Shown here: piece by piece, positions 2,786 through 18,239 of the stretch | Position numbering within the stretch: the first letter of the stretch is position 1 | Layout of the letters: each line of letters begins with the position of its first letter | Source of the DNA: a virus | Lineage: Duplodnaviria > Heunggongvirae > Uroviricota > Caudoviricetes | Reading direction: 5' to 3' (one strand) | Virus record (IMG/VR): IMGVR_UViG_2609459801_000018 | Length of the DNA: 18,239 bases | Position numbers and translations under genes: made by a program | Notes under the pieces: model-generated | What the model was told of the DNA's origin: nothing | Databases searched by the model: none | Seen by the model: only the letters and a program-made list of their open reading frames with translations

Positions 2786-3682
2786 ATGCCTGCTGTTGAC
2801 CTTTCCCAGTTACCGGAACCCGCCATCATCGCGAAGCCTGATTTTGAGGCAATTCTGGCTGACACAAAGGCCATGATGATTGCGTCCTATCCTGCCGAAC
2901 AGCGTGAAGCCGTCTCCGCCGCGCTGGAGCTGGAATCGGAACCCCTGAACGTTATCGCTCAAACCATGTCTTTTCGTGAAATGCTGTTACGCCAGCGGGT
3001 TAACGAGGGCGCACGCGCCTGCATGTTAAGCCACGGTTCAGGGACAAACCTGGACAACCTCGCGGGCAATATGAACACAAAGCGCCTGGTTATCACTCCG
3101 GCAACGGATACCACCGACGCGGTGATGGAGAGCGACACCTCGCTGAGATTGCGGGCGCAACGGGCGTATGACGGCCTGAGTGTTGCTGGCCCGTCAGGTG
3201 CATACGAGTATTTTGCACGCAGCGCCAGCGGTCTGGTGCGTGATGCGCGGGCCATCAGCCCGTCTCCGGCCTGTGTGACGGTTTCCATCCTGTCCACTGA
3301 AGGCGACGGCACAGCAACGGAGGCGTTGCTTAATACCGTTCGCGCCGTTCTGAATGCAGAGGATACCCGCCCGGTGGCCGACCGCCTGACCGTACAGAGC
3401 GCCAGAATCGTGACATGGCGGCTGAATGCAAAACTGTACTTTTACCCCGGCCCGGAATCCGAACCTATTCTGGCCGCGGCTGAATCGTCGTTCAGGAAGT
3501 GGCTGGCTGAGCAGGGGCTTATCGGTCAGGACGTGGCGTTGTCCGCCATTGCTGCCGCACTGCATGTGCACGGTGTGCAACGCGTGGAGATAATCGAACC
3601 CACACAGAATATGGCCATCAGCGACATACAGGCGGCGCGCTGTGAGTCATTCACCATCAGCGAAGGTGGACGCAATGAGTAA
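2786..3682 (+). CDS. baseplate assembly protein J
   Basis: 298 aa, sitting between W and I as in P2; length and position fit gpJ. Confidence 0.8.
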   Translation: MPAVDLSQLPEPAIIAKPDFEAILADTKAMMIASYPAEQREAVSAALELESEPLNVIAQTMSFREMLLRQRVNEGARACMLSHGSGTNLDNLAGNMNTKRLVITPATDTTDAVMESDTSLRLRAQRAYDGLSVAGPSGAYEYFARSASGLVRDARAISPSPACVTVSILSTEGDGTATEALLNTVRAVLNAEDTRPVADRLTVQSARIVTWRLNAKLYFYPGPESEPILAAAESSFRKWLAEQGLIGQDVALSAIAAALHVHGVQRVEIIEPTQNMAISDIQAARCESFTISEGGRNE

Positions 3683-4283
3683 TTCGTTGTTACCACCATC
3701 AGCCAGCAATTTCATGCGTTGTGCCGAAGCCGTCGGAACACGCATTACAGACATTCCGGTAGACCTCAACACGCTGTGGTCGCCGGACACCTGCCCGGTG
3801 CATCTGCTGCCTTATCTCGCCTGGGCGTTTTCCGTTGACCGCTGGGATCGCAACTGGCCGGAAGAGACAAAGCGACAGGTGATTCGTGATGCATGGCTGA
3901 TACACCGACACAAAGGGACCATCAGCGCACTGCGAAGAGCCGTGGAGCCTCTCGGCTACCTGATTGAAGTAAAGGAGTGGTGGCAACTCAACGAGGAGCC
4001 GGGAACATTTCGCATTGTTGTCGGAGTACTTGATCAGGGCATCACCGATGAAATGCATCAGGAACTTGAGCGCCTTATTGCGGATGCAAAACCAGTAAGT
4101 CGCCATCTGACGGGGCTGGCGATCAGCCTGAGTGTGAACGGAAAGATTTTCGTTGGTACGGGATGCTATCACGGCGATGCCCTGACGGTTTATCCCTACA
4201 CCCCGGAGTCCATTATTGTCGAAGGGGACTATTTCCCTGCCCCGGCCATTCATTTAATTGATAATCTGAGAGTAAACGCATGA
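3675..4283 (+). CDS. baseplate/tail protein I
   Basis: Contains gpI-like motifs (LWSPDTCP..LLPYLAWAFSVDRWD, ERLIADAKPVSRHL). The start is chosen at the ATG at 3675, which overlaps the J stop (ATGAGTAA), rather than the ORF-track start at 3642. Confidence 0.8.
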   Translation: MSNSLLPPSASNFMRCAEAVGTRITDIPVDLNTLWSPDTCPVHLLPYLAWAFSVDRWDRNWPEETKRQVIRDAWLIHRHKGTISALRRAVEPLGYLIEVKEWWQLNEEPGTFRIVVGVLDQGITDEMHQELERLIADAKPVSRHLTGLAISLSVNGKIFVGTGCYHGDALTVYPYTPESIIVEGDYFPAPAIHLIDNLRVNA

Positions 4284-5950
4284 CAGTGAAATACTACGCT
4301 ATTCTGACTAATCAGGGCGCGGCACGACTGGCTAACGCGACGATGCTCGGCAGTAAACTGAATCTGACGCAAATGGCCGTTGGTGATGCAAATGGTGTGT
4401 TACCAACACCAGACCCTGCACAAACAAAACTGATTAACCAGAAACGCATTGCACCGCTGAATCTTCTGAGTGTTGACCCTAACAATCAGAGCCAGATTAT
4501 TGCGGAGCAAATCATCCCTGAAAACGAGGGAGGATTCTGGATCCGTGAGATTGGTCTTTATGATGATGAAGGTGCACTCATTGCGGTGGCAAACTGCCCG
4601 GAAACGTACAAACCGCAGTTGCAGGAAGGCAGTGGACGCACCCAGACTATCCGCATGATTCTGGTTGTCACGAACACCGAAGCCATCACGCTGAAAATCG
4701 ACCCGTCTGTGGTTCTGGCAACCCGCAAATATGTGGATGATAAAATATCAGAGCACGAACAATCACGACGTCACCCGGACGCCTCGCTGACCGTAAAAGG
4801 TTTTACTCAGTTAAGCAGTGCAATTAACAGTGAATCAGAAACACTGGCCGCAACACCGAAAGCGGTTAAGGCTGCATATGACCTGGCTAACGGGAAATAT
4901 ACCGCCCAGAACGCCACCACTACACAAAAAGGGATTGTTCAGCTCAGTAGCGCCACGAACAGCACGTCTGAAACGCTGGCAGCGACACCAAAAGCTGTTA
5001 AGGCGGTAATGGATGAAACGAACAAGAAAGCACCATTAAACAGCCCGGCACTGACCGGAACGCCAACAACACCAACAGCGCCACAGGGGGCTAATAGTAC
5101 CCAGATCGCAAGCACGGCTTTCGTTATGGCCGCGATTGCCGCACTTGTAGATTCGTCACCTGATGCACTGAACACGCTGAACGAACTGGCTGCGGCGCTG
5201 GGCAATGACCCGAATTTTGCGACCACCATGACTAACGCGCTTGCGGGTAAGCAACCGAAGAATGCCACCCTGACGGCGCTGGCGAAGCTTGCTACATCAG
5301 CAGATAAACTCCCATATTTTACAGGGGCAGATCGTGCCGCGTTAACCGCGTTGACAAGTGTTGGACGTGCCATTCTTGGTAAAACCAGCACTCAGGGAGT
5401 TCTTGATTACCTTGGTTTGGGGGAAGGCTCTGCACTGCCCGTTGGTGTACCTGTTCCGTGGCCCTCAGCCACTCCACCAACGGGCTGGCTGAAATGCAAC
5501 GGCGCAGCATTTTCTCCTGAAGATTACCCCAAACTGGCACAGGCTTACCCCGCGAACAAATTACCGGATCTACGGGGTGAATTTATCCGTGGCTGGGATG
5601 ATGGACGTGGCTTGGATGCTGGGCGTGCCTTGCTAAGTCTTCAGGATGACTCTTTTGAAGCGCACAGGCATGAGTCCTTTTTTTATGCGGGTATTTCACG
5701 TAATGAGATCCCATTAAAAAATCTTCCAAGTTCAGACGAGATGCTGACTTTAAGTTCCACAACTAATGCCTTGTCCCCGGACGATATTGATGCCACCAAC
5801 TCGTTAATTGGTAATGACGATTACAACTGTCTTATCGAAGGGAATAAAAATAACAAACGAACAGCGACAGGACTGAGTACCAGTATTGTCGGCACAGCAG
5901 AAACACGCCCCCGCAACGTTGCATTCAATTACATCGTAAGAGCCGCATGA
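4280..5950 (+). CDS. tail fibre protein H; constant N-terminal part (to about 5416) fused to the currently expressed variable C-terminal cassette A (5417-5950)
   Basis: 556 aa. The N-terminal ~370 aa resemble P2 gpH, including the duplicated QLSSA.NS.SETLAATPKAVKA motif; the C-terminal part begins LGEGSALPVGVPVPWP, the conserved cassette head. ATG overlaps the I stop. Confidence 0.9.
   Translation: MTVKYYAILTNQGAARLANATMLGSKLNLTQMAVGDANGVLPTPDPAQTKLINQKRIAPLNLLSVDPNNQSQIIAEQIIPENEGGFWIREIGLYDDEGALIAVANCPETYKPQLQEGSGRTQTIRMILVVTNTEAITLKIDPSVVLATRKYVDDKISEHEQSRRHPDASLTVKGFTQLSSAINSESETLAATPKAVKAAYDLANGKYTAQNATTTQKGIVQLSSATNSTSETLAATPKAVKAVMDETNKKAPLNSPALTGTPTTPTAPQGANSTQIASTAFVMAAIAALVDSSPDALNTLNELAAALGNDPNFATTMTNALAGKQPKNATLTALAKLATSADKLPYFTGADRAALTALTSVGRAILGKTSTQGVLDYLGLGEGSALPVGVPVPWPSATPPTGWLKCNGAAFSPEDYPKLAQAYPANKLPDLRGEFIRGWDDGRGLDAGRALLSLQDDSFEAHRHESFFYAGISRNEIPLKNLPSSDEMLTLSSTTNALSPDDIDATNSLIGNDDYNCLIEGNKNNKRTATGLSTSIVGTAETRPRNVAFNYIVRAA
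5400..5425 (+). other. invertase crossover site 1 (TTCTTGATTACC-TT-GGTTTGGGGGAA), inside the H gene
   Basis: 26-bp hix/gix-like site; the conserved half-site GGTTTGGGGGAA (complement TTCCCCCAAACC) is shared with the four other copies; the left half-site TTCTTGA resembles hixL. Confidence 0.75.
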
Positions 5951-5969
5951 AAACGTTGGTTTGGGGGAA
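5944..5969 (+). other. invertase crossover site 2 (direct orientation relative to site 1)
   Basis: CGCATGAAAACG-TT-GGTTTGGGGGAA; the stop codon of H (TGA, 5948-5950) lies inside the site. Confidence 0.75.
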
Positions 5970-6437
5970 GGCTCTGCACTGCCCGTTGGTGTGCCTGTTC
6001 CATGGCCCTTAGCAACACCACCAACGGGCTGGCTGAAATGTAACGGTGCAGCATTTTCTTCTGAAATGTACCCCAAACTGGCAAAAGCCTACCCCACTAA
6101 TAAATTACCGGATTTACGCGGAGAATTTATCCGTGGCTGGGATGATGGGCGAGGAATTGATGCGGCACGCGCTTTATTGAGCATTCAAAACGGGATGTTG
6201 GAAAAACACCGCCATATTGTTGTAGCTAACGATGGATATGACACAAAAGATGAATGGGAGTTGGCTACGATTTTCAAAAAAACATATACACAAGGCAGGG
6301 GGCTTGATGCCACAAATACAGGAGGGAGTTTGATTCCATCACCAACGCTTCATTCACGAGGAAGTATTGGTAACACAGGTGGTAGTGAAACCCGCCCCCG
6401 CAATATTGCATTTAACTATATCGTGAGGGCGGCTTAG
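5961..6437 (+). CDS. alternative tail-fibre C-terminal cassette B (silent; no ATG, the ORF-track start is TTG)
   Basis: 158 codons, open, beginning LGEGSALPVGVPVPWP...GEFIRGWDDGRG and ending ETRPRNIAFNYIVRAA like the other cassettes. Confidence 0.7.
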   Translation: MGEGSALPVGVPVPWPLATPPTGWLKCNGAAFSSEMYPKLAKAYPTNKLPDLRGEFIRGWDDGRGIDAARALLSIQNGMLEKHRHIVVANDGYDTKDEWELATIFKKTYTQGRGLDATNTGGSLIPSPTLHSRGSIGNTGGSETRPRNIAFNYIVRAA

Positions 6438-6443
6438 TTATAT

Positions 6444-7055
6444 TCAACTGGCTGCTGCCAGTGGTATTTCCGGCAAGTTGATATCTGGTACCATGTTTAT
6501 ATCCATTGCGTTCAGCGCGTCTATATAATCCAGCACGGCATTAAGCCGGGTGGTTTCTGCCTGCGTCAACTTCCGCCCGGCCTGCAACTTCAACTGAATC
6601 AGACTTATGGAAGCCATTGCCGCATCAGCCAGTGACTGGCGCTTGGTTTCTGCCGCTTCTACTGCGGCACGATGTTGTGCCTCAGTATCTGTCACCCATT
6701 TTTCACCATCCCATTTATCGTATGGTGTTAACGGGGCGATAGTGGTTGTAGTTTTCGGGTAGTCACCCAGCGCCGTGATTTCTTCGGTGTTTCCCGTGTC
6801 AGTGCTATAGACGGTTTCACCACGATGGTCTGGCGCATACTCCCATGAACTTAAATTCTCCGAACGGCGGATAGCATAGCCCGCTTTATGTGCGCCCGGG
6901 GCATCTAAACAGGAATTTGCCGGAATACCGACACCCACAGCAAGATATTCAGTTGATTCGGAAATATATTCCCGTGTCTCACCATCATAGTTATAAACGA
7001 CGATGTTTCCTGCCTGTACGGCAATAAGGTCATCATTTAATATCGCGTTATTCAT
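6444..7055 (-). CDS. tail fibre assembly protein (P2 gpG / Mu U family chaperone)
   Basis: 203 aa with a tfa-like C-terminus; its ATG overlaps the stop of cassette C (TAATG), so it is translationally coupled to that cassette. Confidence 0.8.
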   Translation of the reverse strand: MNNAILNDDLIAVQAGNIVVYNYDGETREYISESTEYLAVGVGIPANSCLDAPGAHKAGYAIRRSENLSSWEYAPDHRGETVYSTDTGNTEEITALGDYPKTTTTIAPLTPYDKWDGEKWVTDTEAQHRAAVEAAETKRQSLADAAMASISLIQLKLQAGRKLTQAETTRLNAVLDYIDALNAMDINMVPDINLPEIPLAAAS

Positions 7056-7513
7056 TATGCGGTTCTCACAATATAATTGAAGGCAATATTGCGTGGGCGG
7101 TTTTCATTCCCATCTGAGGATTCCGTTCTGTATTGACTGGTAAATCTACCGTTAATTGCACCTTGCCGGACGGCGTTATCTGTCGACAACAGACTATCCC
7201 CTCTTTTGTCATTTGGCACCAGTACCGTGTTATCCCACGCATCCCATGACCGAATATTATGATAATGACTTCCTGTTAACCACCCCTGCATGCTTAAGAT
7301 GCCCCTTCCGGCATCCACCCCGCGCCCATCATCCCAGCCACGGATAAACTCACCGCGTAAATCAGGTAATTTTAACGTTGGGTAAACCTTTGCCAGATTT
7401 GGGTACATTTCAGAAGAAAATGCTGCACCGTTACATTTCAGCCAGCCCGTTGGTGGTGTGGCTGAGGGCCATGGAACAGGCACACCAACGGGCAGTGCAG
7501 AGCCTTCCCCCAA
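7055..7513 (-). CDS. alternative tail-fibre C-terminal cassette C (silent, inverted), paired with the tfa gene
   Basis: 152 codons, open, with the conserved head and the conserved tail ENRPRNIAFNYIVRTA; starts at the TTG within site 3. Confidence 0.7.
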   Translation of the reverse strand: MGEGSALPVGVPVPWPSATPPTGWLKCNGAAFSSEMYPNLAKVYPTLKLPDLRGEFIRGWDDGRGVDAGRGILSMQGWLTGSHYHNIRSWDAWDNTVLVPNDKRGDSLLSTDNAVRQGAINGRFTSQYRTESSDGNENRPRNIAFNYIVRTA

Positions 7514-7530
7514 ACCAACGTTTTCATGCT
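7505..7530 (-). other. invertase crossover site 3 (inverted relative to site 1)
   Basis: Plus strand reads TTCCCCCAAACC-AA-CGTTTTCATGCT; contains the stop codon of cassette D. Confidence 0.75.
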
Positions 7531-7952
7531 GCCCTTACGATGTAATTAAACGCAATATTACGAGGACGAATGGTTACATAATTGACCCCATCACCTCGTG
7601 AAGGTCCTGCAAATGAAAAACGGGAAAAGCTTGGTTGGTTAGAAACAATTTGGTCATAGTTATTGATTGAATGACCAGACCCAATGTCGAAATTACCTCC
7701 GTAATGAGAAAAACTTGTACCATCCTGCCCTGAAAGCAGGGTACGTCCCGCATCAATCCCGCGCCCATCATCCCAGCCACGGATAAATTCACCCCGTAAA
7801 TCCGGTAATTTATTGGTGGGGTAAGCCTTTGCCAGTCCGGGATACATTTCAGAAGAAAATGCTGCGCCGTTACATTTCAGCCAGCCCGTTGGTGGTGTTG
7901 CTGAGGACCACGGAACGGGCACACCAACGGGCAGCGCAGAGCCTTTCCCCAA
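7524..7952 (-). CDS. alternative tail-fibre C-terminal cassette D (silent, inverted)
   Basis: 142 codons, open; head is GKGSALPVGVPVPW (K in place of E), tail is RPRNIAFNYIVRAA. Confidence 0.7.
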   Translation of the reverse strand: MGKGSALPVGVPVPWSSATPPTGWLKCNGAAFSSEMYPGLAKAYPTNKLPDLRGEFIRGWDDGRGIDAGRTLLSGQDGTSFSHYGGNFDIGSGHSINNYDQIVSNQPSFSRFSFAGPSRGDGVNYVTIRPRNIAFNYIVRAA

Positions 7953-7969
7953 ACCAACGTTTTCATGCT
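7944..7969 (-). other. invertase crossover site 4 (inverted; one mismatch in the conserved half-site, TTTCCCC instead of TTCCCCC)
   Basis: Plus strand reads TTTCCCCAAACC-AA-CGTTTTCATGCT; contains the stop codon of cassette E. Confidence 0.7.
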
Positions 7970-8486
7970 GCCCTTACGATGTAATTAAACGCAATGTTGC
8001 GTGGGCGGTTTTCGTTTGCAGTTGGAACAATTTTTGAAGCATCAAGGCCAATCACTTTTGGGTAAACAGCGCCGTCTGTCCTTTCTGTCACCATACTTCT
8101 GACTAAGGAGAAATAACTATTGTTTGTTGAGGAATTTAAAGGCACCACTGCCCCCTTAAACGAGCCTACTGATTCCCATATTGAATAATTTTCAGTGTTT
8201 ACAGTCTTGAACTCACCATAGATATTACGTATGGCATCACCTTGAGCGGATAATATTGTTCTCCCCGCATCCGCACTACGTCCATCATCCCAGCCACGAA
8301 TAAATTCACCCCGTAAATCCGGTAATTTATTGGTGGGGTAAGCCTTTGCCAGTCCGGGATACATTTCAGAAGAAAATGCTGCGCCGTTACATTTCAGCCA
8401 GCCCGTTGGTGGTGTTGCTGAGGGCCACGGAACGGGCACACCAACAGGCAGCGCAGAACCTTCCCCCAAACCAACGTTTTCGTTTT
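7963..8486 (-). CDS. alternative tail-fibre C-terminal cassette E (silent, inverted)
   Basis: Open frame with conserved head LGEGSALPVGVPVPWPSATPPTGWLKCNGAAFS and tail ENRPRNIAFNYIVRAA. The ORF-track extension to 8526 starts at TTG and runs through site 5, so it is unlikely to be a real start. Confidence 0.65.
8461..8486 (-). other. invertase crossover site 5 (inverted), 55 bp upstream of the invertase start
   Basis: Plus strand reads TTCCCCCAAACC-AA-CGTTTTCGTTTT; same conserved half-site as the others, with a distinct outer arm. Confidence 0.75.
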
Positions 8487-8540
8487 TATCCCTACCTATA
8501 CCAACTATGTATTTTTCACGAAACAAAGAGGATGTTTTTT

Positions 8541-9140
8541 ATGCAAATTGGCTATGTTCGTGTGTCAACAAATGACCAGAACACGGATTTACAACGCAAT
8601 GCACTGAACTGCGCAGGATGTGAACTGATTTTTGAAGATAAAATCAGCGGAACGAAATCAGCCAGACCGGGATTGAAAAAACTGCTCAGAACGCTATCAG
8701 AAGGAGATACGCTGGTTGTCTGGAAGCTGGACAGACTGGGCAGAAGTATGAAACACCTGATCACGCTTATTGAGGAATTGCGGGAAAAAGGTGTTAATTT
8801 CCGTAGTCTGACGGACAGCATTGACACATCAACACCCATGGGGCGTTTCTTTTTTCACGTCATGGGGGCTTTAGCCGAAATGGAACGTGAATTAATTGTA
8901 GAGCGTACACTGGCCGGGCTGGCAGCAGCACGCGCACAAGGACGCATTGGCGGACGTCGCCCGAAGTTGACAAAAGAACAACACGAGCAAATAGCGAGGC
9001 TGATTAAAAACGGTCATGACAGGAAACAACTGGCGATCATTTACGACATCGGCATATCGACGATTTATCGTTATCACCCTGTAGGCGATATACAGGCTGA
9101 AGAAACAACCAGGCAGACTCAGGAAAATGAAAACCGCTAA
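8541..9140 (+). CDS. site-specific DNA invertase, small serine recombinase of the Hin/Gin/Pin/Cin/Min family
   Basis: N-terminus MQIGYVRVSTNDQNTDLQRNAL with the catalytic Ser in VSTNDQ; motifs VVWKLDRLGRS, GRFFFHVMGALAEMERELI..ERT and a C-terminal HTH region, near-identical in pattern to Pin/Gin. AGAGGA RBS 8 nt upstream of the ATG at 8541; the ORF-track start at 8346 is rejected. Confidence 0.93.
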   Translation: MQIGYVRVSTNDQNTDLQRNALNCAGCELIFEDKISGTKSARPGLKKLLRTLSEGDTLVVWKLDRLGRSMKHLITLIEELREKGVNFRSLTDSIDTSTPMGRFFFHVMGALAEMERELIVERTLAGLAAARAQGRIGGRRPKLTKEQHEQIARLIKNGHDRKQLAIIYDIGISTIYRYHPVGDIQAEETTRQTQENENR

Positions 9141-9159
9141 TCTGACCATTAGCGGTTTT
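9130..9159. terminator. bidirectional intrinsic terminator between the convergent invertase and U genes
   Basis: Perfect 12-bp inverted repeat AAAACCGCTAAT / ATTAGCGGTTTT with a 6-nt loop, flanked by T-runs on both strands. Confidence 0.6.
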
Positions 9160-9166
9160 GCGTTAA

Positions 9167-9661
9167 TCAAAACAGCCCTTTAACGGAGCTGGCCGCGCTG
9201 TTAAGGGATGATGTGACCTTATCTTTGAAGCCGGACAGCATATCACTGAACGATGAGGATTGCAGGCGCTCCCGCAAATCCTCATCACAGCGTTCAAGAG
9301 TCAGTGAAAACTCTATCTTTTTCGCCTTACCGTAGCGATCAAACTCGGAGCGGGTCGTATTCGTTCCGGTCAGGACATACATGCCGTAAATCTGCCCGAC
9401 ACCATCAATCAGAGGCCAGGGGCGTCCTGTATATGCCTGCGTGGTCAGCAACGAAAGCGACACTTCGCCACCTGTAATTTCAGGATAAAGCACACCAGAA
9501 AGAACGATGCGATCATCGCCTGCCCCGATATACTGCCAGCTTGCTGAACGGTTAACGCGTTCATTTTTCACATGCCGCCAGCTTTTGTTTTGCTGTAACT
9601 GCTGATGCGGCAACGTACGCAGCTCAAAAACAAACATGCCGTAGATCATCATCATGGCCAT
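9167..9661 (-). CDS. tail protein U
   Basis: 164 aa; N-terminus MAMMMIYGMFVFEL and the GAGDD / PLIDG motifs resemble P2 gpU; immediately downstream of T. Confidence 0.8.
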   Translation of the reverse strand: MAMMMIYGMFVFELRTLPHQQLQQNKSWRHVKNERVNRSASWQYIGAGDDRIVLSGVLYPEITGGEVSLSLLTTQAYTGRPWPLIDGVGQIYGMYVLTGTNTTRSEFDRYGKAKKIEFSLTLERCDEDLRERLQSSSFSDMLSGFKDKVTSSLNSAASSVKGLF

Positions 9662-9667
9662 GACTCC

Positions 9668-12511
9668 TCAATCTTTATCGTAAAAACTGCCACGCCCGGC
9701 ACGGGCGCGCCGTTCCATTTCTGCCCTGACCATTTCACCGACCAGTTTCGCCAGTTCGCGGGGATTCTGCGTAACAACGTTATGCAGATGAACATGAATT
9801 TCACCACCAAATCCGGAGGCAACAGGCTCCCGGTTACGGGAAGTTACAGGAACTGATGCCACTGGAGATCGTATGGCCTCCGCCACCGGGCGGGAGCTGG
9901 CCGCAACAACAGGGACCAGCGCCGGAGGCAGCGGAGCCGGGACCACGGGGGTGATATTCATTGCGGGGGCAGGCTTACTGACCTGTGCAATCTTCCGCTC
10001 CTGCCACTCCCCACGAACAGCAAGTGCGCGGGGCAGGTTCTTAAAGACAATATCGCCGGGGCCAATACGTTTTTTTGTCTCATCAACCAGCTTACCTGTG
10101 TTATCAGCAATTTTGCTGAGTCTGCGTAGCGTGCCGGTATTGCTGTCTGTGAGCGGTTTGTTGTCTTTGGGTTTATCGCCTCCGGTGCCATTGCCATTTT
10201 CCGCAGACTTCGGCGGATTGATTTTCGCAATGTCTCCCTGAAACAGAGCAACCTTGTCCTGAAGAATGGCCGCACGCTGTGCGTCTTCGATTTTCTTTCT
10301 CGCCCTTTCCGCTTCATCCGGAAGCACACCGAGTTTTTCAAGTATCCACGCCAGCGTATCCAGCAACATTTTTGCAGGCGTCAGAACAAGCTGTAGCGCG
10401 CCACCAAGAGCGTTACCGAATATCTCGCCAGCACTGGTACATTTATCCAGCGTTTCCTTGCTGGACTCCATCGGTGACAGCAGCGATTTAAACCAGTTAA
10501 ACACCTGGCTGATCCCGCTTCCGATTGCGTCAAAAACAGGACCAAACCGTTCAAAGGTTTCACGCAACGGGTTCAGCCTTTCCATAATCCCGCTGAACAC
10601 CCCGGCAAAAAATGCCCTGATGGGATCCCAGTATTTCCAGATAAGAACGGCAGCTCCGGCAAGCGCAGCCACGATAAGACCAACCGGACTGAACAGCGCC
10701 CCGATAGCGCCTCCCAGCAAAGAAACGGAACCCGTCACCATTCCCCACAGCGCAGGCAACACCCTGACGACATTCATTGACCGGGTAAGAATGTCAAAAC
10801 CAAGACGCAGGGTGGCCAGCTTCCCGTAAAGCACCCCAATAACCAGTGACAACGAGCCAATCGTTGCAGTCATTGCCAGCAACGCACCGCCTGCTATCAG
10901 TAGCTGGCGCGTCAGTACCGGATGGGCCTGCGCCAGCGAGGTGATTTTTTCAAGCACCCGCGTGAGCCACTGCGTGACAGAACGCAGCGGACCGTCAACC
11001 AGATCACTGATGCGAATACGAAGACCTTCCCATGCGCTGTCGAGATTTTTCAGGTCCCCATCAAGATTATCGGCCATTACTTTTGCAACGCGATCGGCCT
11101 CTCCCCTTGCCCCCTGCAATTCTCTGGTCAGTTTTTGCAGCTCTCCTGAACCAGCCGCCGCAACAAGCGTCTGCAAACCAACGAACGCCTCTTCTCCGGC
11201 GATGTCCTTGAAGAAGGAGACCTGGTCCACCTGTCCGTATTTTTGTGTCGCCTTATAGAGATCAAGCAGCACATCCTCCATCGGGCGCATTTTGCCTCTG
11301 GCGTCAGCAACTGACACCCCCAGCTCTTTCAGTGCATCAGCCGCAGCTTTTGGCGGTGATGCAAGGCGGGACAGACTTGCGCGCATGGCCGTGCCAGCAT
11401 CGCTTCCGCGAAGACCATTATTGGCAAGCATCCCGGCCATAGCCGCCGCTTCTTCAAGACTGATACCAAGTTTTGCGGCAACCGGACCGGTATACTTCAT
11501 GGTTTCGCCCAGCGCGCGTAAATCAGTATTGGTCCGGGTGAATGCCGCTGTCAGCGTATCGCCAACCCGGTCCATTTGATCGGCTGTCAGGTTGAACTGT
11601 GTGAGGATATTGGAGCCTATATCCGCCGTCTCGCCGAGTTCGACGCCACCTGCCAGCGCCATATTAAGAACACCGGGCAATGCGGCCTGAATGGCCTGCG
11701 GAGTAAAACCAGCCATTGCCAGAAAGCTCTGCCCACTGGCGGCATCACTCGCAGTAAACTGTGTTTCAGAGCCAAGTTTTAACGCCTGCTCACGCAGCGC
11801 CTTAAACTGCGGGCTGTTTTTGTCGATTCGCGTCAGTGCCTGAACGCGGGACATCTCTTTGCCGAACCCGATCGCAGGCTGCAAAAAACGCCCGGCAGCA
11901 TAGCCGCCCGCCGCTGCCGCACCAATTGCCAGCGCACCACCTGTTTTCAGTTTTCCCGCGGTTTCCTGCGCGCGCGAATACCGCTCACGCGCCCGCGTTA
12001 CACGCGCAAGCGCCTGCCGTTCGCGTTCAAGCTGGTTGTTGTACTGTTCGGTGCGTCTGATGGCCTGCTGGATGGTGTTATCGCTGCCTGTCAGGGAAAT
12101 GCCGTGGCGTTTCAGCTCTCCGCCAAGCTCCCGCATTTTCTGAATTTCCCGTGTGCGCGATTCATTCAGGCGTTCAAGCCGGGTGCTTAACTGCTGCATC
12201 AGCTTTTGTTGTTTTTCGCTGAGCACTGTACCCGTGCGTTGTAACTGATTAAGGGCGTTAAGCTGGCGTCGTGCTTTCACGATACCCGCATCCGCTTTAC
12301 TGACAGCGTCGCGGGCGCGCTCAAATGATCGCGCCTGACGCTCGAGATTTTTGATCGCCCCCTGCGTTCGCTGGATGGAGTCACCAAACTGCCCCATCAG
12401 GCGGCGGGCGTTTTCGGCAGGCCGGGTCAGCCTGTCAACGGCGCTGAAAGCGACCCGGATATCAAGAGTCTTCATTGTCTGCATTCCCGCTGCGAAGTGC
12501 CGCCCGCTCAC
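9668..12511 (-). CDS. tail tape measure protein T
   Basis: 947 aa, coiled-coil N-terminal region, Ala/Gly-rich hydrophobic central segments, typical position between E' and U. The start is uncertain: GTG at 12511, or ATG at about 12484 or 12475. Confidence 0.88.
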   Translation of the reverse strand: MSGRHFAAGMQTMKTLDIRVAFSAVDRLTRPAENARRLMGQFGDSIQRTQGAIKNLERQARSFERARDAVSKADAGIVKARRQLNALNQLQRTGTVLSEKQQKLMQQLSTRLERLNESRTREIQKMRELGGELKRHGISLTGSDNTIQQAIRRTEQYNNQLERERQALARVTRARERYSRAQETAGKLKTGGALAIGAAAAGGYAAGRFLQPAIGFGKEMSRVQALTRIDKNSPQFKALREQALKLGSETQFTASDAASGQSFLAMAGFTPQAIQAALPGVLNMALAGGVELGETADIGSNILTQFNLTADQMDRVGDTLTAAFTRTNTDLRALGETMKYTGPVAAKLGISLEEAAAMAGMLANNGLRGSDAGTAMRASLSRLASPPKAAADALKELGVSVADARGKMRPMEDVLLDLYKATQKYGQVDQVSFFKDIAGEEAFVGLQTLVAAAGSGELQKLTRELQGARGEADRVAKVMADNLDGDLKNLDSAWEGLRIRISDLVDGPLRSVTQWLTRVLEKITSLAQAHPVLTRQLLIAGGALLAMTATIGSLSLVIGVLYGKLATLRLGFDILTRSMNVVRVLPALWGMVTGSVSLLGGAIGALFSPVGLIVAALAGAAVLIWKYWDPIRAFFAGVFSGIMERLNPLRETFERFGPVFDAIGSGISQVFNWFKSLLSPMESSKETLDKCTSAGEIFGNALGGALQLVLTPAKMLLDTLAWILEKLGVLPDEAERARKKIEDAQRAAILQDKVALFQGDIAKINPPKSAENGNGTGGDKPKDNKPLTDSNTGTLRRLSKIADNTGKLVDETKKRIGPGDIVFKNLPRALAVRGEWQERKIAQVSKPAPAMNITPVVPAPLPPALVPVVAASSRPVAEAIRSPVASVPVTSRNREPVASGFGGEIHVHLHNVVTQNPRELAKLVGEMVRAEMERRARAGRGSFYDKD

Positions 12512-12991
12512 GCCAGCTAACCACTTCGCCGGGCGTCATCATGAAGATTTCGGCGGGCGACCAGTTAAAAATGGCGGCAATATCCGCCACAAAGTCTTCT
12601 ATGTGCTCAAAGCACACAACCGTGATCAGGCTTCCGTCGCCTGTTCGCTCTTCCCGCCAGAGTCCGCACCGCTCAAAAAATTTACGGCAACCACACATAA
12701 CTGAATAAAATCACGGGATGCCATTTTTTTGATCGTCACTTCATCCAGTCGTGGCGAGGTCACGCGTGACAGCAGCGTAAACATGGATTCCGCTTTCAGA
12801 TTCAGCACATCAGACAGCGACAAATCTCGCAGAGATCCAGCCTGCTCAATAGCCCCGGTGATCTCCACATACGTGATTTTTTCGCCGCCTCGCTCAATTG
12901 GTTGGGTAAGTTTTACGCCACGCTCACTGGTTTCTTTCACAGTGTCAGTAACTACCGTGTTTTCGGTATCGATGTTTTTCGTCTCTTTCAT
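12462..12991 (-). CDS. tail assembly chaperone E' (E+E' fusion made by a programmed -1 frameshift near 12674-12680)
   Basis: ORF 12462-12698 is in the -1 frame relative to E and is open from just downstream of the TTTTTTG site. Shifting there gives ...VAVNFFERCGLW..., matching the second ORF. Its end overlaps the start of T. Confidence 0.7.
12626..12991 (-). CDS. tail assembly chaperone E
   Basis: 121 aa, acidic, between the tube gene and T; contains the slippery heptamer, as in the P2 E/E' arrangement. Confidence 0.8.
   Translation of the reverse strand: MKETKNIDTENTVVTDTVKETSERGVKLTQPIERGGEKITYVEITGAIEQAGSLRDLSLSDVLNLKAESMFTLLSRVTSPRLDEVTIKKMASRDFIQLCVVAVNFLSGADSGGKSEQATEA
12674..12680 (-). 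promoter_or_regulatory. programmed -1 ribosomal frameshift slippery site TTTTTTG (E to E')
   Basis: The coding (minus) strand reads AAT TTT TTG AGC in the E frame; the downstream -1 frame is open for about 70 codons. Confidence 0.65.
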
Positions 12992-13045
12992 CAGGAAACT
13001 CCTTTCAGTCAGAGGCGACGCACTGCGCCGCCTGCATATTACTTA

Positions 13046-13558
13046 TCAGCCAAGCCCGAGCGCGGAACGGATGCGATCGGGCACAATGTCCTTGCCGTCC
13101 TTCCGGTAGATGTGGTTCAACAGGTCGATTTCCCACAGCGGGCGATCGTTAACGCTCAGCTTGTAGTAGGTGTTTTTGACAGCGTAAGTGTGTGATGTGG
13201 CTTCGCCCTGTTTGGCCTCCCCCATATCAATTTCCGTCACACGCCCGCGCATCTCGATTTCATACAGATCGCTTTCTGCATCGGTGTAGTATTCACCCGC
13301 AAAACGCAGCAGCGTGCCGTCAATCGTGCCGCCATATTTAAGGAACAGCGCACGAACAGCTCCCCCCATGACAAAGCTCGCATCAAGCGCGGAGTCGTCC
13401 AGACCGAGATCAATACTTACCGCCCCCATCATGCCACCACCCCGGTAGCTGTCGGTTTTGCGCGTCAGCTTAGGCAGAGTGACGGACGTCACCTTACCCA
13501 CTTCGTTTTCACCATCCACAAACAGCGTAAAAAAGCGAAGATGTTTTGGTACAGCCAT
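13046..13558 (-). CDS. major tail tube protein FII
   Basis: 170 aa; start overlaps the FI stop; length and position match P2 FII. Confidence 0.88.
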   Translation of the reverse strand: MAVPKHLRFFTLFVDGENEVGKVTSVTLPKLTRKTDSYRGGGMMGAVSIDLGLDDSALDASFVMGGAVRALFLKYGGTIDGTLLRFAGEYYTDAESDLYEIEMRGRVTEIDMGEAKQGEATSHTYAVKNTYYKLSVNDRPLWEIDLLNHIYRKDGKDIVPDRIRSALGLG

Positions 13559-14742
13559 CAGGCACCTCCCAGCACCGCAAATGCGGGACCAAAGAATTCA
13601 TCAGTAAACGTCTGGTAAAGCTCCATGTCTTCCAGTGGCGGAACGGGCGTATATTTGTAGCGAATACGCACACGTCCCTGACGTAAATCCGTGGTGCCGT
13701 TATCCACCACGTCATACCAGCACTCCGCGCCAATCAGTTTCCCGGCAGTAACCAGCGAATCCAGTTTTGCCCTGATGGCACTGATAACATCCTTCACGTT
13801 CGCAGGCGTCAGTGGACTGTCGATGGTTTCAAACTGCGCTTCCGCAATTGAATCAGCCAGCACCTGTGCGGTTCGGGTATACACCTCAAAGATGTAGGCG
13901 TTCGTTTCCGGTGTGCGGTTGCCCCAGAAGCGGAACCCGTTACGACGAATAATGGTCGTGATTTCTTTGTTGTTGAGGCTGTTGGCATCACTGTCTTCGG
14001 CCTGTAACGACCAGAACACATGCCTCGACATCCCCAGCACATTTTTAACCGGAACGTTGGACAGCGATTTGTGCCAGCCCTGCTCATGGTCAATGTACGC
14101 ACGAAGGCCGCACGCATAAGCAGGCGCGGGGAACGTTTCGTTTTTGCCACTTTTCGGGTTGTAGGCGATGAAGTCAGGCCATAAGAGCATCACCTCACGT
14201 TCGTTGAATTTCTGGCGGTAGGTAATCGCCTCAGCCATCGTGTTACAACCATGACATGCGGCATACACAAACGCGCGCAGTTTACCCGCAATCACGCACA
14301 GGGATTTTGTCACCGCCTCCGTGTCCAGCTCCGGCGCGGCCAGAATACGCGGACGGTATCCGATGCTTTCATCCTGCTCTGCAACAAGCAGCGCATACAT
14401 CCCCGTATAGCTGCCGTCAGATTCAGAACCACCGATAACCAGTTGATCCTGCGTCTTTCCGTTTTCTTCTTTGTGTTCAGCCACGCGAACGACGATCACC
14501 TTTGTGCTCACCTGGTCTGCGATGGCCTTAAGCGCACGATAAAGCGTCCCCGTTGTCCCGCATTTTCCCAGCACGTCATTGACGCGGGTCAGCAGTGTGG
14601 GCTTGTTCAGCGGGAACAGCTTCGCGTCCGCATCATCCGCCGTTGCCACGATACCGATAACGCTGGAATCAACATCGTTAATCGCTGTTACCAGGTCGGT
14701 ACTTTCCGTAACACGGGCACCATGAAAACGAGTTTCACTCAT
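13558..14742 (-). CDS. tail sheath protein FI
   Basis: 394 aa; length, composition and position upstream of the tube gene match the P2 FI sheath. Confidence 0.9.
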   Translation of the reverse strand: MSETRFHGARVTESTDLVTAINDVDSSVIGIVATADDADAKLFPLNKPTLLTRVNDVLGKCGTTGTLYRALKAIADQVSTKVIVVRVAEHKEENGKTQDQLVIGGSESDGSYTGMYALLVAEQDESIGYRPRILAAPELDTEAVTKSLCVIAGKLRAFVYAACHGCNTMAEAITYRQKFNEREVMLLWPDFIAYNPKSGKNETFPAPAYACGLRAYIDHEQGWHKSLSNVPVKNVLGMSRHVFWSLQAEDSDANSLNNKEITTIIRRNGFRFWGNRTPETNAYIFEVYTRTAQVLADSIAEAQFETIDSPLTPANVKDVISAIRAKLDSLVTAGKLIGAECWYDVVDNGTTDLRQGRVRIRYKYTPVPPLEDMELYQTFTDEFFGPAFAVLGGA

Positions 14743-16049: not shown

Positions 16050-16310
16050 ATGTTCCGTTGTCCGCTTTGTGGCGCATCTGCCCGTATCCGCACCAGTCGT
16101 TCGGAAAATGATTCAAACACCGTACGGAAAAAATATTACCAGTGTAACAACCTGGAATGCGGCATAAGTTTCTCAACACTGGAAGCTTTCCATAAATTCA
16201 CATCGAAACACGCCCCCGGCGTTCACTCTTCAGAAGGTATCCCGTGGCATGAGTTGCCAGCTTCACACAGGGGAAACAATCAGATGAGTTTGCCTTTATC
16301 TCAGAATTAA
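16050..16310 (+). CDS. ogr: Ogr/Delta-family zinc-finger late transcription activator
   Basis: N-terminus MFRCPLCGASARIRTSR....YYQCNNLECGISF reproduces the Ogr C-x2-C...C-x4-C zinc-finger pattern; AAGGGAGG RBS; located after D as in P2. Confidence 0.8.
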   Translation: MFRCPLCGASARIRTSRSENDSNTVRKKYYQCNNLECGISFSTLEAFHKFTSKHAPGVHSSEGIPWHELPASHRGNNQMSLPLSQN

Positions 16311-16370
16311 CAGGCAGAATTGCCGGAGTAACAAAAACGCGATAGATTACGCGCGGGTGCCTTTCGGCTG

Positions 16371-16583
16371 ATGGTCGGAGGGAATACCCGAAGGCCAGAT
16401 GTGGAAAGGCCCCGGAAAACATCTCTGTTTAACCGAGGCCCTAACCGCATTACCTTGACAAGTGAAAGGTTAGCGCCTCTCCGGAAAAGGAGCAAGTGCT
16501 ATGTCGCAAAAATCGCTTACGGCCATCACGTTCTGCGTGACGGCAATCCTCATCATCTGGATGCTGCACGGTTCGCTGTGTGA
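16371..16583 (+). CDS. mok-like overlapping reading frame of a hok/sok-type locus
   Basis: 70-codon ORF that starts upstream of the hok-like ORF and overlaps it in another frame, the arrangement of mok/hok in plasmid R1 (mok there is also 70 codons). Confidence 0.4.
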   Translation: MVGGNTRRPDVERPRKTSLFNRGPNRITLTSERLAPLRKRSKCYVAKIAYGHHVLRDGNPHHLDAARFAV

Positions 16584-16641
16584 AATACGGATGAGTTTCT
16601 GGGGAGCGGAGTTTGCGGCGTTCTTACAGTGTAAGCAGTAA
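16501..16641 (+). CDS. Hok/Gef-family type I toxin (small membrane peptide)
   Basis: 46-codon ORF, not in the supplied track (too short): MSQKSLTAITFCVTAILIIWMLHGSLCEIRMSFWGAEFAAFLQCKQ. Hydrophobic N-terminal helix followed by SLCEI...E.AAF..C, the Hok family signature, closest to HokA by memory. AAGGAG RBS 8 nt upstream. Confidence 0.65.
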   Translation: MSQKSLTAITFCVTAILIIWMLHGSLCEIRMSFWGAEFAAFLQCKQ

Positions 16642-16734
16642 GGAAACCGCGACGGGGAAGGCAACTTCCCCGTCAATCGGTTGCCAGGGTAAAGGTCGAA
16701 AAGACACCCTATTTCCAGTTGACGTGAACAACAA

Positions 16735-16768
16735 GCCCGCAGCGTAAAAACTGCGGGTTTTCTTTTTG
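16735..16768 (+). terminator. intrinsic terminator downstream of the hok-like gene
   Basis: Stem CCCGCAG / CTGCGGG with an 8-nt loop, followed by TTTTCTTTTT. Confidence 0.6.
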
Positions 16769-16790
16769 GTTCCCTCACTCATGAGGACAC

Positions 16791-16830
16791 CAAAAAACAA
16801 AGCCCACAGCATAGAAACTGTGGGCTTTTT
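16791..16830. terminator. bidirectional intrinsic terminator; likely serS terminator on the minus strand
   Basis: Stem AGCCCACAG / CTGTGGGCT, with TTTTT on the plus side and, on the minus strand, TTGTTTTTTGG. Confidence 0.55.
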
Positions 16831-16946
16831 GCATTCAAAGATGGACGTTATATGGACACTTAAAAATAAAATCCATTTATTTTCAAATGATTAAACCTCT
16901 ACTTAAAGCGCCCGCAGGCGCTTTTTAGATTCAGAAAAATTGGGTA

Positions 16947-18239
<1,293 letters not shown>

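Follow-up and report, generated by a model that had tools for sequence, protein, structure and literature searches.

The 18,239-nucleotide stretch IMGVR_UViG_2609459801_000018 (the window, meaning the whole of the DNA analysed) is by its gene content the tail module of a P2-like prophage, at the end adjoining the host gene serS. Its segment 5400–9140 is very probably a multiple-inversion switch of the Min/Gin type, with which this prophage changes the tip of its tail fibre. The finding is carried by the anatomy of the locus, by exact recombinant junctions in near-identical prophages and by nested inversions within the lineage. We propose that a serine invertase recombines any pair of 26-bp sites in opposite orientation at their TT cores, each time flipping whatever lies between them. 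A cassette landing to the right of site 1 would then be fused in frame to the constant part of the tail-fibre gene H. The element is a further, five-cassette case of a known kind, to which Min of plasmid p15B and the 'shufflon' of a P2-like prophage in enteropathogenic Escherichia coli (EPEC) belong, and it leaves the known picture unchanged.

The crossover sites were located through the motif GGTTTGGGGNAAGG, which occurs five times in the window against 0.44 expected, a number reached in none of 200 shuffles. The copies lie on the + strand at 5414 and 5958 and on the − strand at 7503–7516, 7942–7955 and 8459–8472. Alignment of their flanks yielded five 26-bp sites, in each of which a TT core separates a left and a right half of 12 bp. 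This is the layout of the Gin/Hin/Cin/Pin/Min ('Din') systems, whose sites have imperfectly symmetric 12-bp halves and an asymmetric 2-bp core. Except for one variant, the right halves read GGTTTGGGGGAA. Site 1 (5400–5425, + strand, core 5412–5413) is inside H and reads TTCTTGATTACC-TT-GGTTTGGGGGAA, and site 2 (5944–5969, + strand, core 5956–5957; CGCATGAAAACG-TT-GGTTTGGGGGAA) is direct relative to it. Sites 3 (7505–7530, core 7517–7518), 4 (7944–7969, core 7956–7957) and 5 (8461–8486, core 8473–8474) are on the − strand; site 4 carries the variant right half GGTTTGGGGAAA, and the left half of site 5 is in fixed DNA beside the invertase gene. All five junctions are canonical combinations of a left half and a right half. 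A conserved leader opens at each site, giving repeat families of 215–282 nt with 83–90% identity, and sites 1 and 2 mark the start of a 240-nt direct repeat with 84% identity (repeat family D2).

Gene H (4280–5950, + strand, 556 aa) has an N-terminal tail-fibre domain, fibre repeats and a C-terminal Collar domain. Its constant part (4280–5399, + strand) matches Pfam PF12571 (E = 1.3e-62) and PF03406, and its expressed C-terminus is cassette A (5426–5950, + strand), a Collar domain with the stop codon TGA at 5948–5950. Cassette B (5970–6437, + strand; Collar domain PF07484, E = 4.8e-15) is silent and direct. The frame of B is open from 5955, inside site 2, to the TAG at 6435–6437; it has no start codon of its own except a TTG within the half-site, and B is 65% identical to the expressed cassette A. 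A sequence-only reading of this DNA had claimed that sites 1 and 2 point the same way and that site 2 and a silent cassette B, just past the H stop codon, occupy 5944–6437. These coordinates proved exact. Motif search and flank alignment both placed the two sites on the + strand, and the TGA of H falls in the left half of site 2, with B following in the same orientation.

Three more silent cassettes, C (7055–7504), D (7524–7943) and E (7963–8460), are inverted on the − strand; they too are Collar-domain ORF fragments according to Pfam and the cassette alignment. The five cassettes share their N-terminal 78 residues and a C-terminal RPRNIAFNYIVRAA block and differ in the central 54–89 residues. 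All of them keep the same reading frame through the site in the alignment, and H-A, H-B, H-C, H-D and H-E fusions are each present among relatives. One constant 5′ open reading frame (ORF) is therefore combined with in-frame alternative 3′ cassettes, as in multiple-inversion systems. The sole tail-fibre assembly (chaperone) gene, tfa (6444–7055, − strand; Caudo_TAP PF02413, E = 8.9e-31), runs antisense to H in the present isomer. It is translationally coupled to cassette C, whose stop codon overlaps the tfa start in the sequence TAATG (7053–7057). In relatives, tfa is always linked to B and C; B-tfa-C forms an indivisible module between sites 2 and 3, and each of its ends is a right half-site. 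In A, D and E, a right half-site at the 5′ end is combined with the left half of the next site at the 3′ end. Multi-cassette relatives contain one tfa per 2–9 cassettes, in either orientation in roughly equal numbers, and the lone exception (locus L007) looks like an assembly chimera.

The recombinase is a serine DNA invertase of the Gin/Hin/Cin/Pin/Min group (8541–9140, + strand, 199 aa), matching PF00239 Resolvase (E = 2.1e-51) and PF02796 HTH_7 (E = 1.4e-12). It aligned with the Gin structures 4m6f (E = 2.4e-91) and 3uj3 (E = 1.2e-90), including Ser9. The ORF is intact, and the protein has the make-up of a 'Din' enzyme, a small serine recombinase with the nucleophilic Ser9 and a C-terminal helix-turn-helix. 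His106 and Met114, which are wild-type residues, are present. The enzyme is 76.5% identical to the SfMu invertase and 97.2% identical over residues 1–181 to that of pJIE250-3, with the last 13–18 residues differing. The likeness to Min of p15B, a plasmid of E. coli 15T-, is drawn through a reported value only: the pJIE250-3 enzyme, about 97% identical to ours, is itself reported to be 98.5% identical to Min (PMC6906374). About 160 plasmid records encode invertases 95–99% identical to this one, those listed being mostly E. coli phage-plasmids of ~80–90 kb. A GTDB genome scan with the invertase returned mostly distant invertases without this cassette system, and NCBIfam did not place the invertase, tfa or H in a specific family.

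A candidate recombinational enhancer, to which no strand is assigned, was found by motif scan at the 5′ end of the invertase gene (8562–8625), where Fis-like 15-mers occupy 8562–8576 and 8611–8625. Between them are ATTTA and CAATG, similar to the tracts ATTTA and TAATG of the Hin enhancer (PMC3798978). Across 82 homologues, the synonymous divergence of codons 1–35 was 0.37–0.43, as compared with 0.55 overall. In 'Din' systems, a cis-acting enhancer with two Fis sites is typically situated in the 5′ end of the invertase gene, and this may also be the case here.

Arrangements were compared across 334 related loci, in which the positions of H, tfa, the invertase and the cassettes were mapped; on clustering, the cassettes fell into 53 types. 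A ranking of complete genomes by their likeness to the window favours colinear orders, so their uniform layout with inverted tfa was not used to argue for fixity. For less biased sampling, loci were retrieved by the invertase or tfa protein and by a search with an in-silico inverted query; about 35 complete E. coli genomes with this invertase were examined. Cassette arrangements varied widely among elements with 95–100% identical invertases, and the number of cassettes ranged from 2 to 9. The left half of site 1 always stayed with H, and the right half and the cassette varied.

The window has the order H-A> B> tfa< C< D< E<, where arrowheads give orientation. E. coli 266917_2 (NZ_CP026723.1) has H-B> tfa< C< A< D< E<, with A, B, D, E, tfa and the invertase 100% identical, the constant part of H 99.7% identical and the flanks 99.2–99.7% identical. 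Cassette A is inverted there, between C and D, and B is fused to H, as it also is in STEC1590 and others. All five junctions of 266917_2 are the exact recombinants predicted for exchange inside the 26-bp sites. In E. coli PO06021 (NZ_CM129868.1), where both flanks, the constant part of H, A, B, tfa, C and the invertase are 100% identical, the order is H-A> D> B> tfa< C<, with D in + orientation between A and B. The IMG/VR contig L255 reads H-C> tfa> B< before it ends, the constant part of H, C, tfa and B all being 100% identical. In these near-identical relatives, exchange was confined to the 26-bp sites. Cassette C differs between the window and 266917_2 (locus L249) at two leader positions only, 7460 and 7464, and both carry B-type bases, which suggests gene conversion between the leaders.

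The homologous three-cassette locus of EPEC E2348/69 was also found in two states, H-D> B> tfa< C< in NC_011601.1 and H-C> tfa> B< D< in NZ_CP059840.2 of the same strain. Goldberg et al. (2014, PMC4272514) measured large and nested inversions in cultures of E2348/69 and confirmed four coexisting variants by polymerase chain reaction. The published segments are 1891695–1893703 (90% forward) and 1892127–1893703 (49 ± 37% forward; PMC4272514); the site cores that we mapped at 1891695, 1892134 and 1893696 agree with these coordinates within 7 bp. Different isomers are thus present in closely related or clonal DNA, both among the window, 266917_2, PO06021 and L255 and between the two E2348/69 assemblies. 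The sequence-only reading had supposed that the system has been active in this lineage, and had proposed a comparison of cassette order and orientation across related prophages, in which one arrangement shared by all would have pointed to a fixed structure. The orders of 99–100% identical prophages (266917_2, L255 and PO06021) bear out this activity.

We then modelled the locus as a state graph of tokens, in which inversion was allowed between any two oppositely oriented sites. The five sites, with their overlapping and nested segments, gave 48 reachable isomers, in 24 of which tfa is co-oriented with H. Starting from the window, expression of C, D or E takes one inversion each, and that of B takes at least two. 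The claim that B is out of reach of a single inversion from site 1 is therefore correct. The same reading had explained the direct orientation of B as a footprint of earlier nested inversions between internal sites, such as 2x3. A direct silent cassette turned out to be an ordinary state rather than a special mark: at least one occurs in 36 of the 48 modelled isomers, and 8 of 12 multi-cassette relatives sampled regardless of arrangement have one.

Nested, internal inversions do occur in this lineage. When the loss of E is allowed for, PO06021 differs from the window by two inversions; the shortest paths are 2x3 then 2x4, or 2x4 then 3x4, and both use internal sites only. A further path with 2x3 is one of the two two-step routes from the window to 266917_2 (2x3, then 1x3), and in EPEC the small inversion between sites 2 and 3 stands at 49 ± 37% forward (PMC4272514). 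Inversions of this kind are accordingly real, but as the cause of B's orientation in this copy we consider them possible at best, and rather doubtful. A single inversion between sites 1 and 3 leads from the all-inverted isomer H-C> tfa> B< A< D< E< to the window, with B as a passenger, so nested events are not needed; 266917_2 is likewise one inversion away from this isomer, and its start (H-C> tfa> B<) is seen in L255. Different paths leave identical junctions, and the history of this copy cannot be read from its sequence. The orientation of cassette B is the normal passenger effect of a site-1 inversion. According to the proposed mechanism, site 2 and B would have travelled along when the segment bringing A to H was flipped, possibly by that single exchange between site 1 and the site of A.

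The direct arrangement of sites 1 and 2 had also been called deletion-prone, since their recombination would remove A and fuse H to B. The geometry of this proposal is right: an exchange between sites 1 and 2 excises A and produces an in-frame H-B fusion. Low-frequency deletions mediated by Gin are reportedly on record from Plasterk and colleagues in 1983, which counts for deletion by the invertase, as do the cassette numbers of 2 to 9 among the relatives and the existence of two-cassette prophages with H-B> tfa< C< (L167). The enzyme class speaks against it. In Hin and Gin, the synapse with the enhancer and Fis specifies inversion, and deletion matches inversion in rate only in mutants that are independent of Fis, such as Hin-H107Y (PMC3798978, PMC4817059); non-complementary cores lead to a second rotation and knotting instead of recombination (PMC1904230). 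The present invertase retains the wild-type His106 and Met114, its gene contains the candidate enhancer at 8562–8625, and by analogy with this class it is presumably Fis/enhancer-dependent, with a strong preference for inversion over deletion at direct sites. An H-B fusion lacking A was not found among near-identical prophages, 266917_2 having H-B but keeping A, and relatives have maintained arrays with as many as five direct sites (L178). We therefore consider it quite unlikely that the invertase recombines sites 1 and 2 at an appreciable rate. The New Zealand isolates L168 and L169, which share flanking proteins, were tried as a pair for the change from H-x> B> to H-B> and rejected: the loci differ by ~52 bp, and the H gene of L168 is interrupted.

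The only deletion between direct cassettes that was found and could be polarised is the loss of E in PO06021; the window and the more distant 266917_2 both have E. We compared positions 3573–3999 (reverse-complemented) of the PO06021 locus (L336) with window positions 7531–8486, the flanks being 100% identical. At +11, +16, +28 and +50 from the core, the D cassette of PO06021 has the bases of E; from +175 on, it has those of D. This places the crossover in a 124-bp tract identical between the D and E leaders. The loss of E is thus the product of homologous recombination in the leaders, 51–174 nt from the core, and not of exchange at the core. Between the leaders of sites 1 and 2, identity is 80% over 261 nt, with no identical run longer than 37 bp. 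A homologous route to the H-B fusion is possible, and it should be rarer than the D/E case. Of the deletion claim, the geometry and the occurrence of deletion between direct cassettes stood; the observed event used another repeat pair and another mechanism, and for this class of invertase the proposed one is mechanistically doubtful. In our model, direct cassettes would be deleted through ordinary homologous recombination in the conserved leaders of ~170–240 bp.

Two other explanations were weighed. A fixed arrangement in which recombination is over might be suggested by three E2348/69 assemblies sharing one order, and by the many complete E. coli genomes with X> B> tfa< C<. However, these genomes were picked by colinearity with the window, which biases the sample towards colinear matches, and the fourth E2348/69 assembly is in another state. 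The orders of 266917_2, PO06021 and L255 differ in spite of 99–100% identity, and the invertase ORF is intact with Ser9 in place. The fossil explanation is refuted by these other orders, and we regard it as barely conceivable. The order in the window could instead have been assembled wrongly from the ~240 bp repeats of a mixed population. Many IMG/VR contigs end inside the region, and some, such as L007, look chimeric between two states. On the other side, A> B> tfa< C< is also the order in the complete genome EcE.CRE.COL (L165), PO06021 has H-A with B> tfa< C<, and every junction in the window is of the canonical kind; an assembly artefact is very unlikely.

Several points nevertheless weigh against an active invertase-driven switch as we describe it. 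Switching in this particular host would follow from what is seen in its relatives. The putative enhancer is proposed from motifs and synonymous constraint, and constraint at the 5′ end of a gene often has other causes. The preference for inversion over deletion is carried over to this enzyme from the Hin/Gin class. The sole tfa is antisense to H in this isomer, of which the model gives no account. Finally, some relatives have the same cassette twice in mirror positions, which pure inversion cannot yield.

The orientation of tfa admits a further reading, in which the B-tfa-C module between sites 2 and 3 is a second switch in its own right and determines how the sole chaperone gene is oriented relative to the late operon. 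We consider this unlikely. It would fit the antisense position of tfa in half of the isomers, including the window, the presence of one tfa per 2–9 cassettes, the overlap of its start with the stop of C, and the 49 ± 37% forward state of the small EPEC inversion. If it were true, and if Tfa is required for cassettes A, B, D and E, the production of any functional fibre would depend on nested inversion, separately from the choice of the tip. A TGT-N12-ACA dyad at 8508–8525, between site 5 and the start of the invertase gene, might instead drive leftward late transcription. Such dyads are of the type bound by Ogr at P2 late promoters, and a transcript running leftward from this one would enter the E-D-C-tfa array. 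The match does not exceed chance expectation, as the scan for this Ogr-type motif gave 2 matches against 4.95 expected. A sigma-70 promoter scan of the region gave fewer matches than shuffled sequences.

Min of p15B, said to have been described by Sandmeier and colleagues and by Iida and colleagues in 1990 and cited in PMC5903667 and PMC6906374, reportedly has several sites, overlapping invertible segments, a constant 5′ tail-fibre ORF and alternative 3′ cassettes. The present locus resembles it in all of these traits, and in both the orientation of sites depends on the isomer. The p15B system has six sites and ours five, and the host element here is an integrated P2-like prophage beside serS and not a P1-like plasmid. 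The P2-like 'shufflon' of E2348/69 (PMC4272514) is closely similar: the constant part of H is 99.1% and the invertase region 99.5% identical at the DNA level, the layout is H-X> B> tfa< C< followed by the invertase, and site 2 is direct to site 1. It has three sites, three cassettes (D, B and C) and four isomers, in contrast to the five cassettes and 48 isomers of our locus.

With the two-site systems (G/Gin of Mu, C/Cin of P1, P/Pin of e14 and H/Hin of Salmonella), the locus shares the enzyme family, the 26-bp sites with a 2-bp core and possibly the enhancer in the 5′ end of the invertase gene. Tail-fibre C-termini are swapped in all of them except Hin. These systems have two sites and two states, whereas five sites and nested segments are present here; Mu and P1 have one chaperone gene per orientation, whereas our locus has a single one for all its cassettes. 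The R64/IncI shufflon (Rci) follows the same logic, with numerous sites and a constant 5′ gene that receives alternative 3′ ends, and it prefers inversion over deletion (PMC11850598), as is presumed here. Rci, however, is a tyrosine recombinase that acts on sfx sites to vary the pilus adhesin PilV. The sole recombinase found in our locus is a serine invertase, and membership in the R64 type was rejected.

These results bear on how such loci are annotated and assembled. The silent RefSeq coding sequences named 'phage tail protein' after H are promoterless cassettes of one switch, and strains cannot be reliably marked by the order of the cassettes. At this locus, short-read assembly is prone to broken or chimeric contigs. 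Two processes can be told apart, namely the shuffling of cassettes through invertase exchange in the 26-bp sites and their deletion through homologous recombination in the leader tracts. This distinction matters for estimating how fast host-range repertoires shrink.

The survey of relatives yielded further observations. Many IMG/VR short-read contigs (L005, L015–L017, L031, L033, L040 and others) end within the cassette array or at its edge, beside the invertase gene; these ends are a sign that the repeats, and perhaps mixed isomers, break assemblies. The mirror-placed duplicate cassettes occur in some genomes, complete ones among them (L166, L253, L264, L261, L007, L014). Their variable bodies are identical or nearly so, with the differences mostly in the leaders. 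They may be real duplications, or chimeras that arose in the assembly of mixed isomers. Cassette A (95–96% identical) also appears in simple switches with two states, which come with a tfa of their own alongside and whose invertase is only 83–85% identical (L172, L183, L194–L196 and others), which implies that cassettes move between different inversion systems. Invertases 96–97% identical, together with the same cassette types, are found on P1/p15B-like phage-plasmids of ~90 kb with up to nine cassettes (e.g., L034–L037). The module is thus common to P2-like and P1-like elements.

The surroundings of the switch are those of a P2-like (Peduovirus-type) tail module, with a P2-type set of tail and baseplate genes and Ogr. 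Pfam matches among the proteins of the window comprise GpR, Phage_tail_S, Tail_P2_I, GpU, tape measure, tube FII, sheath FI, GPD, Ogr_Delta and the H-type fibre N-terminus; V, W and J are annotated in homologous RefSeq loci. The Ogr/Delta zinc-finger gene (16050–16310) is followed by the interval 16311–16946 and then by the host seryl-tRNA synthetase gene serS (16947–18239). As serS follows the Ogr/Delta gene, the prophage end and the attachment site should be at about 16311–16946. The block of U, tape-measure, FII and FI genes (9167–14742) is on the − strand, opposite to H, and converges on the invertase gene. In P2, the FI–U block has the other orientation, and it is thus inverted here relative to the P2 map. 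A symmetric, terminator-like hairpin (9130–9159, no strand assigned) is situated between the invertase gene and the convergent gpU gene. At the other end of the window, an ORF with a DUF6645 domain (1–738) is upstream of gpR, and lysis-region genes occupy the equivalent place in the E2348/69 homologue.

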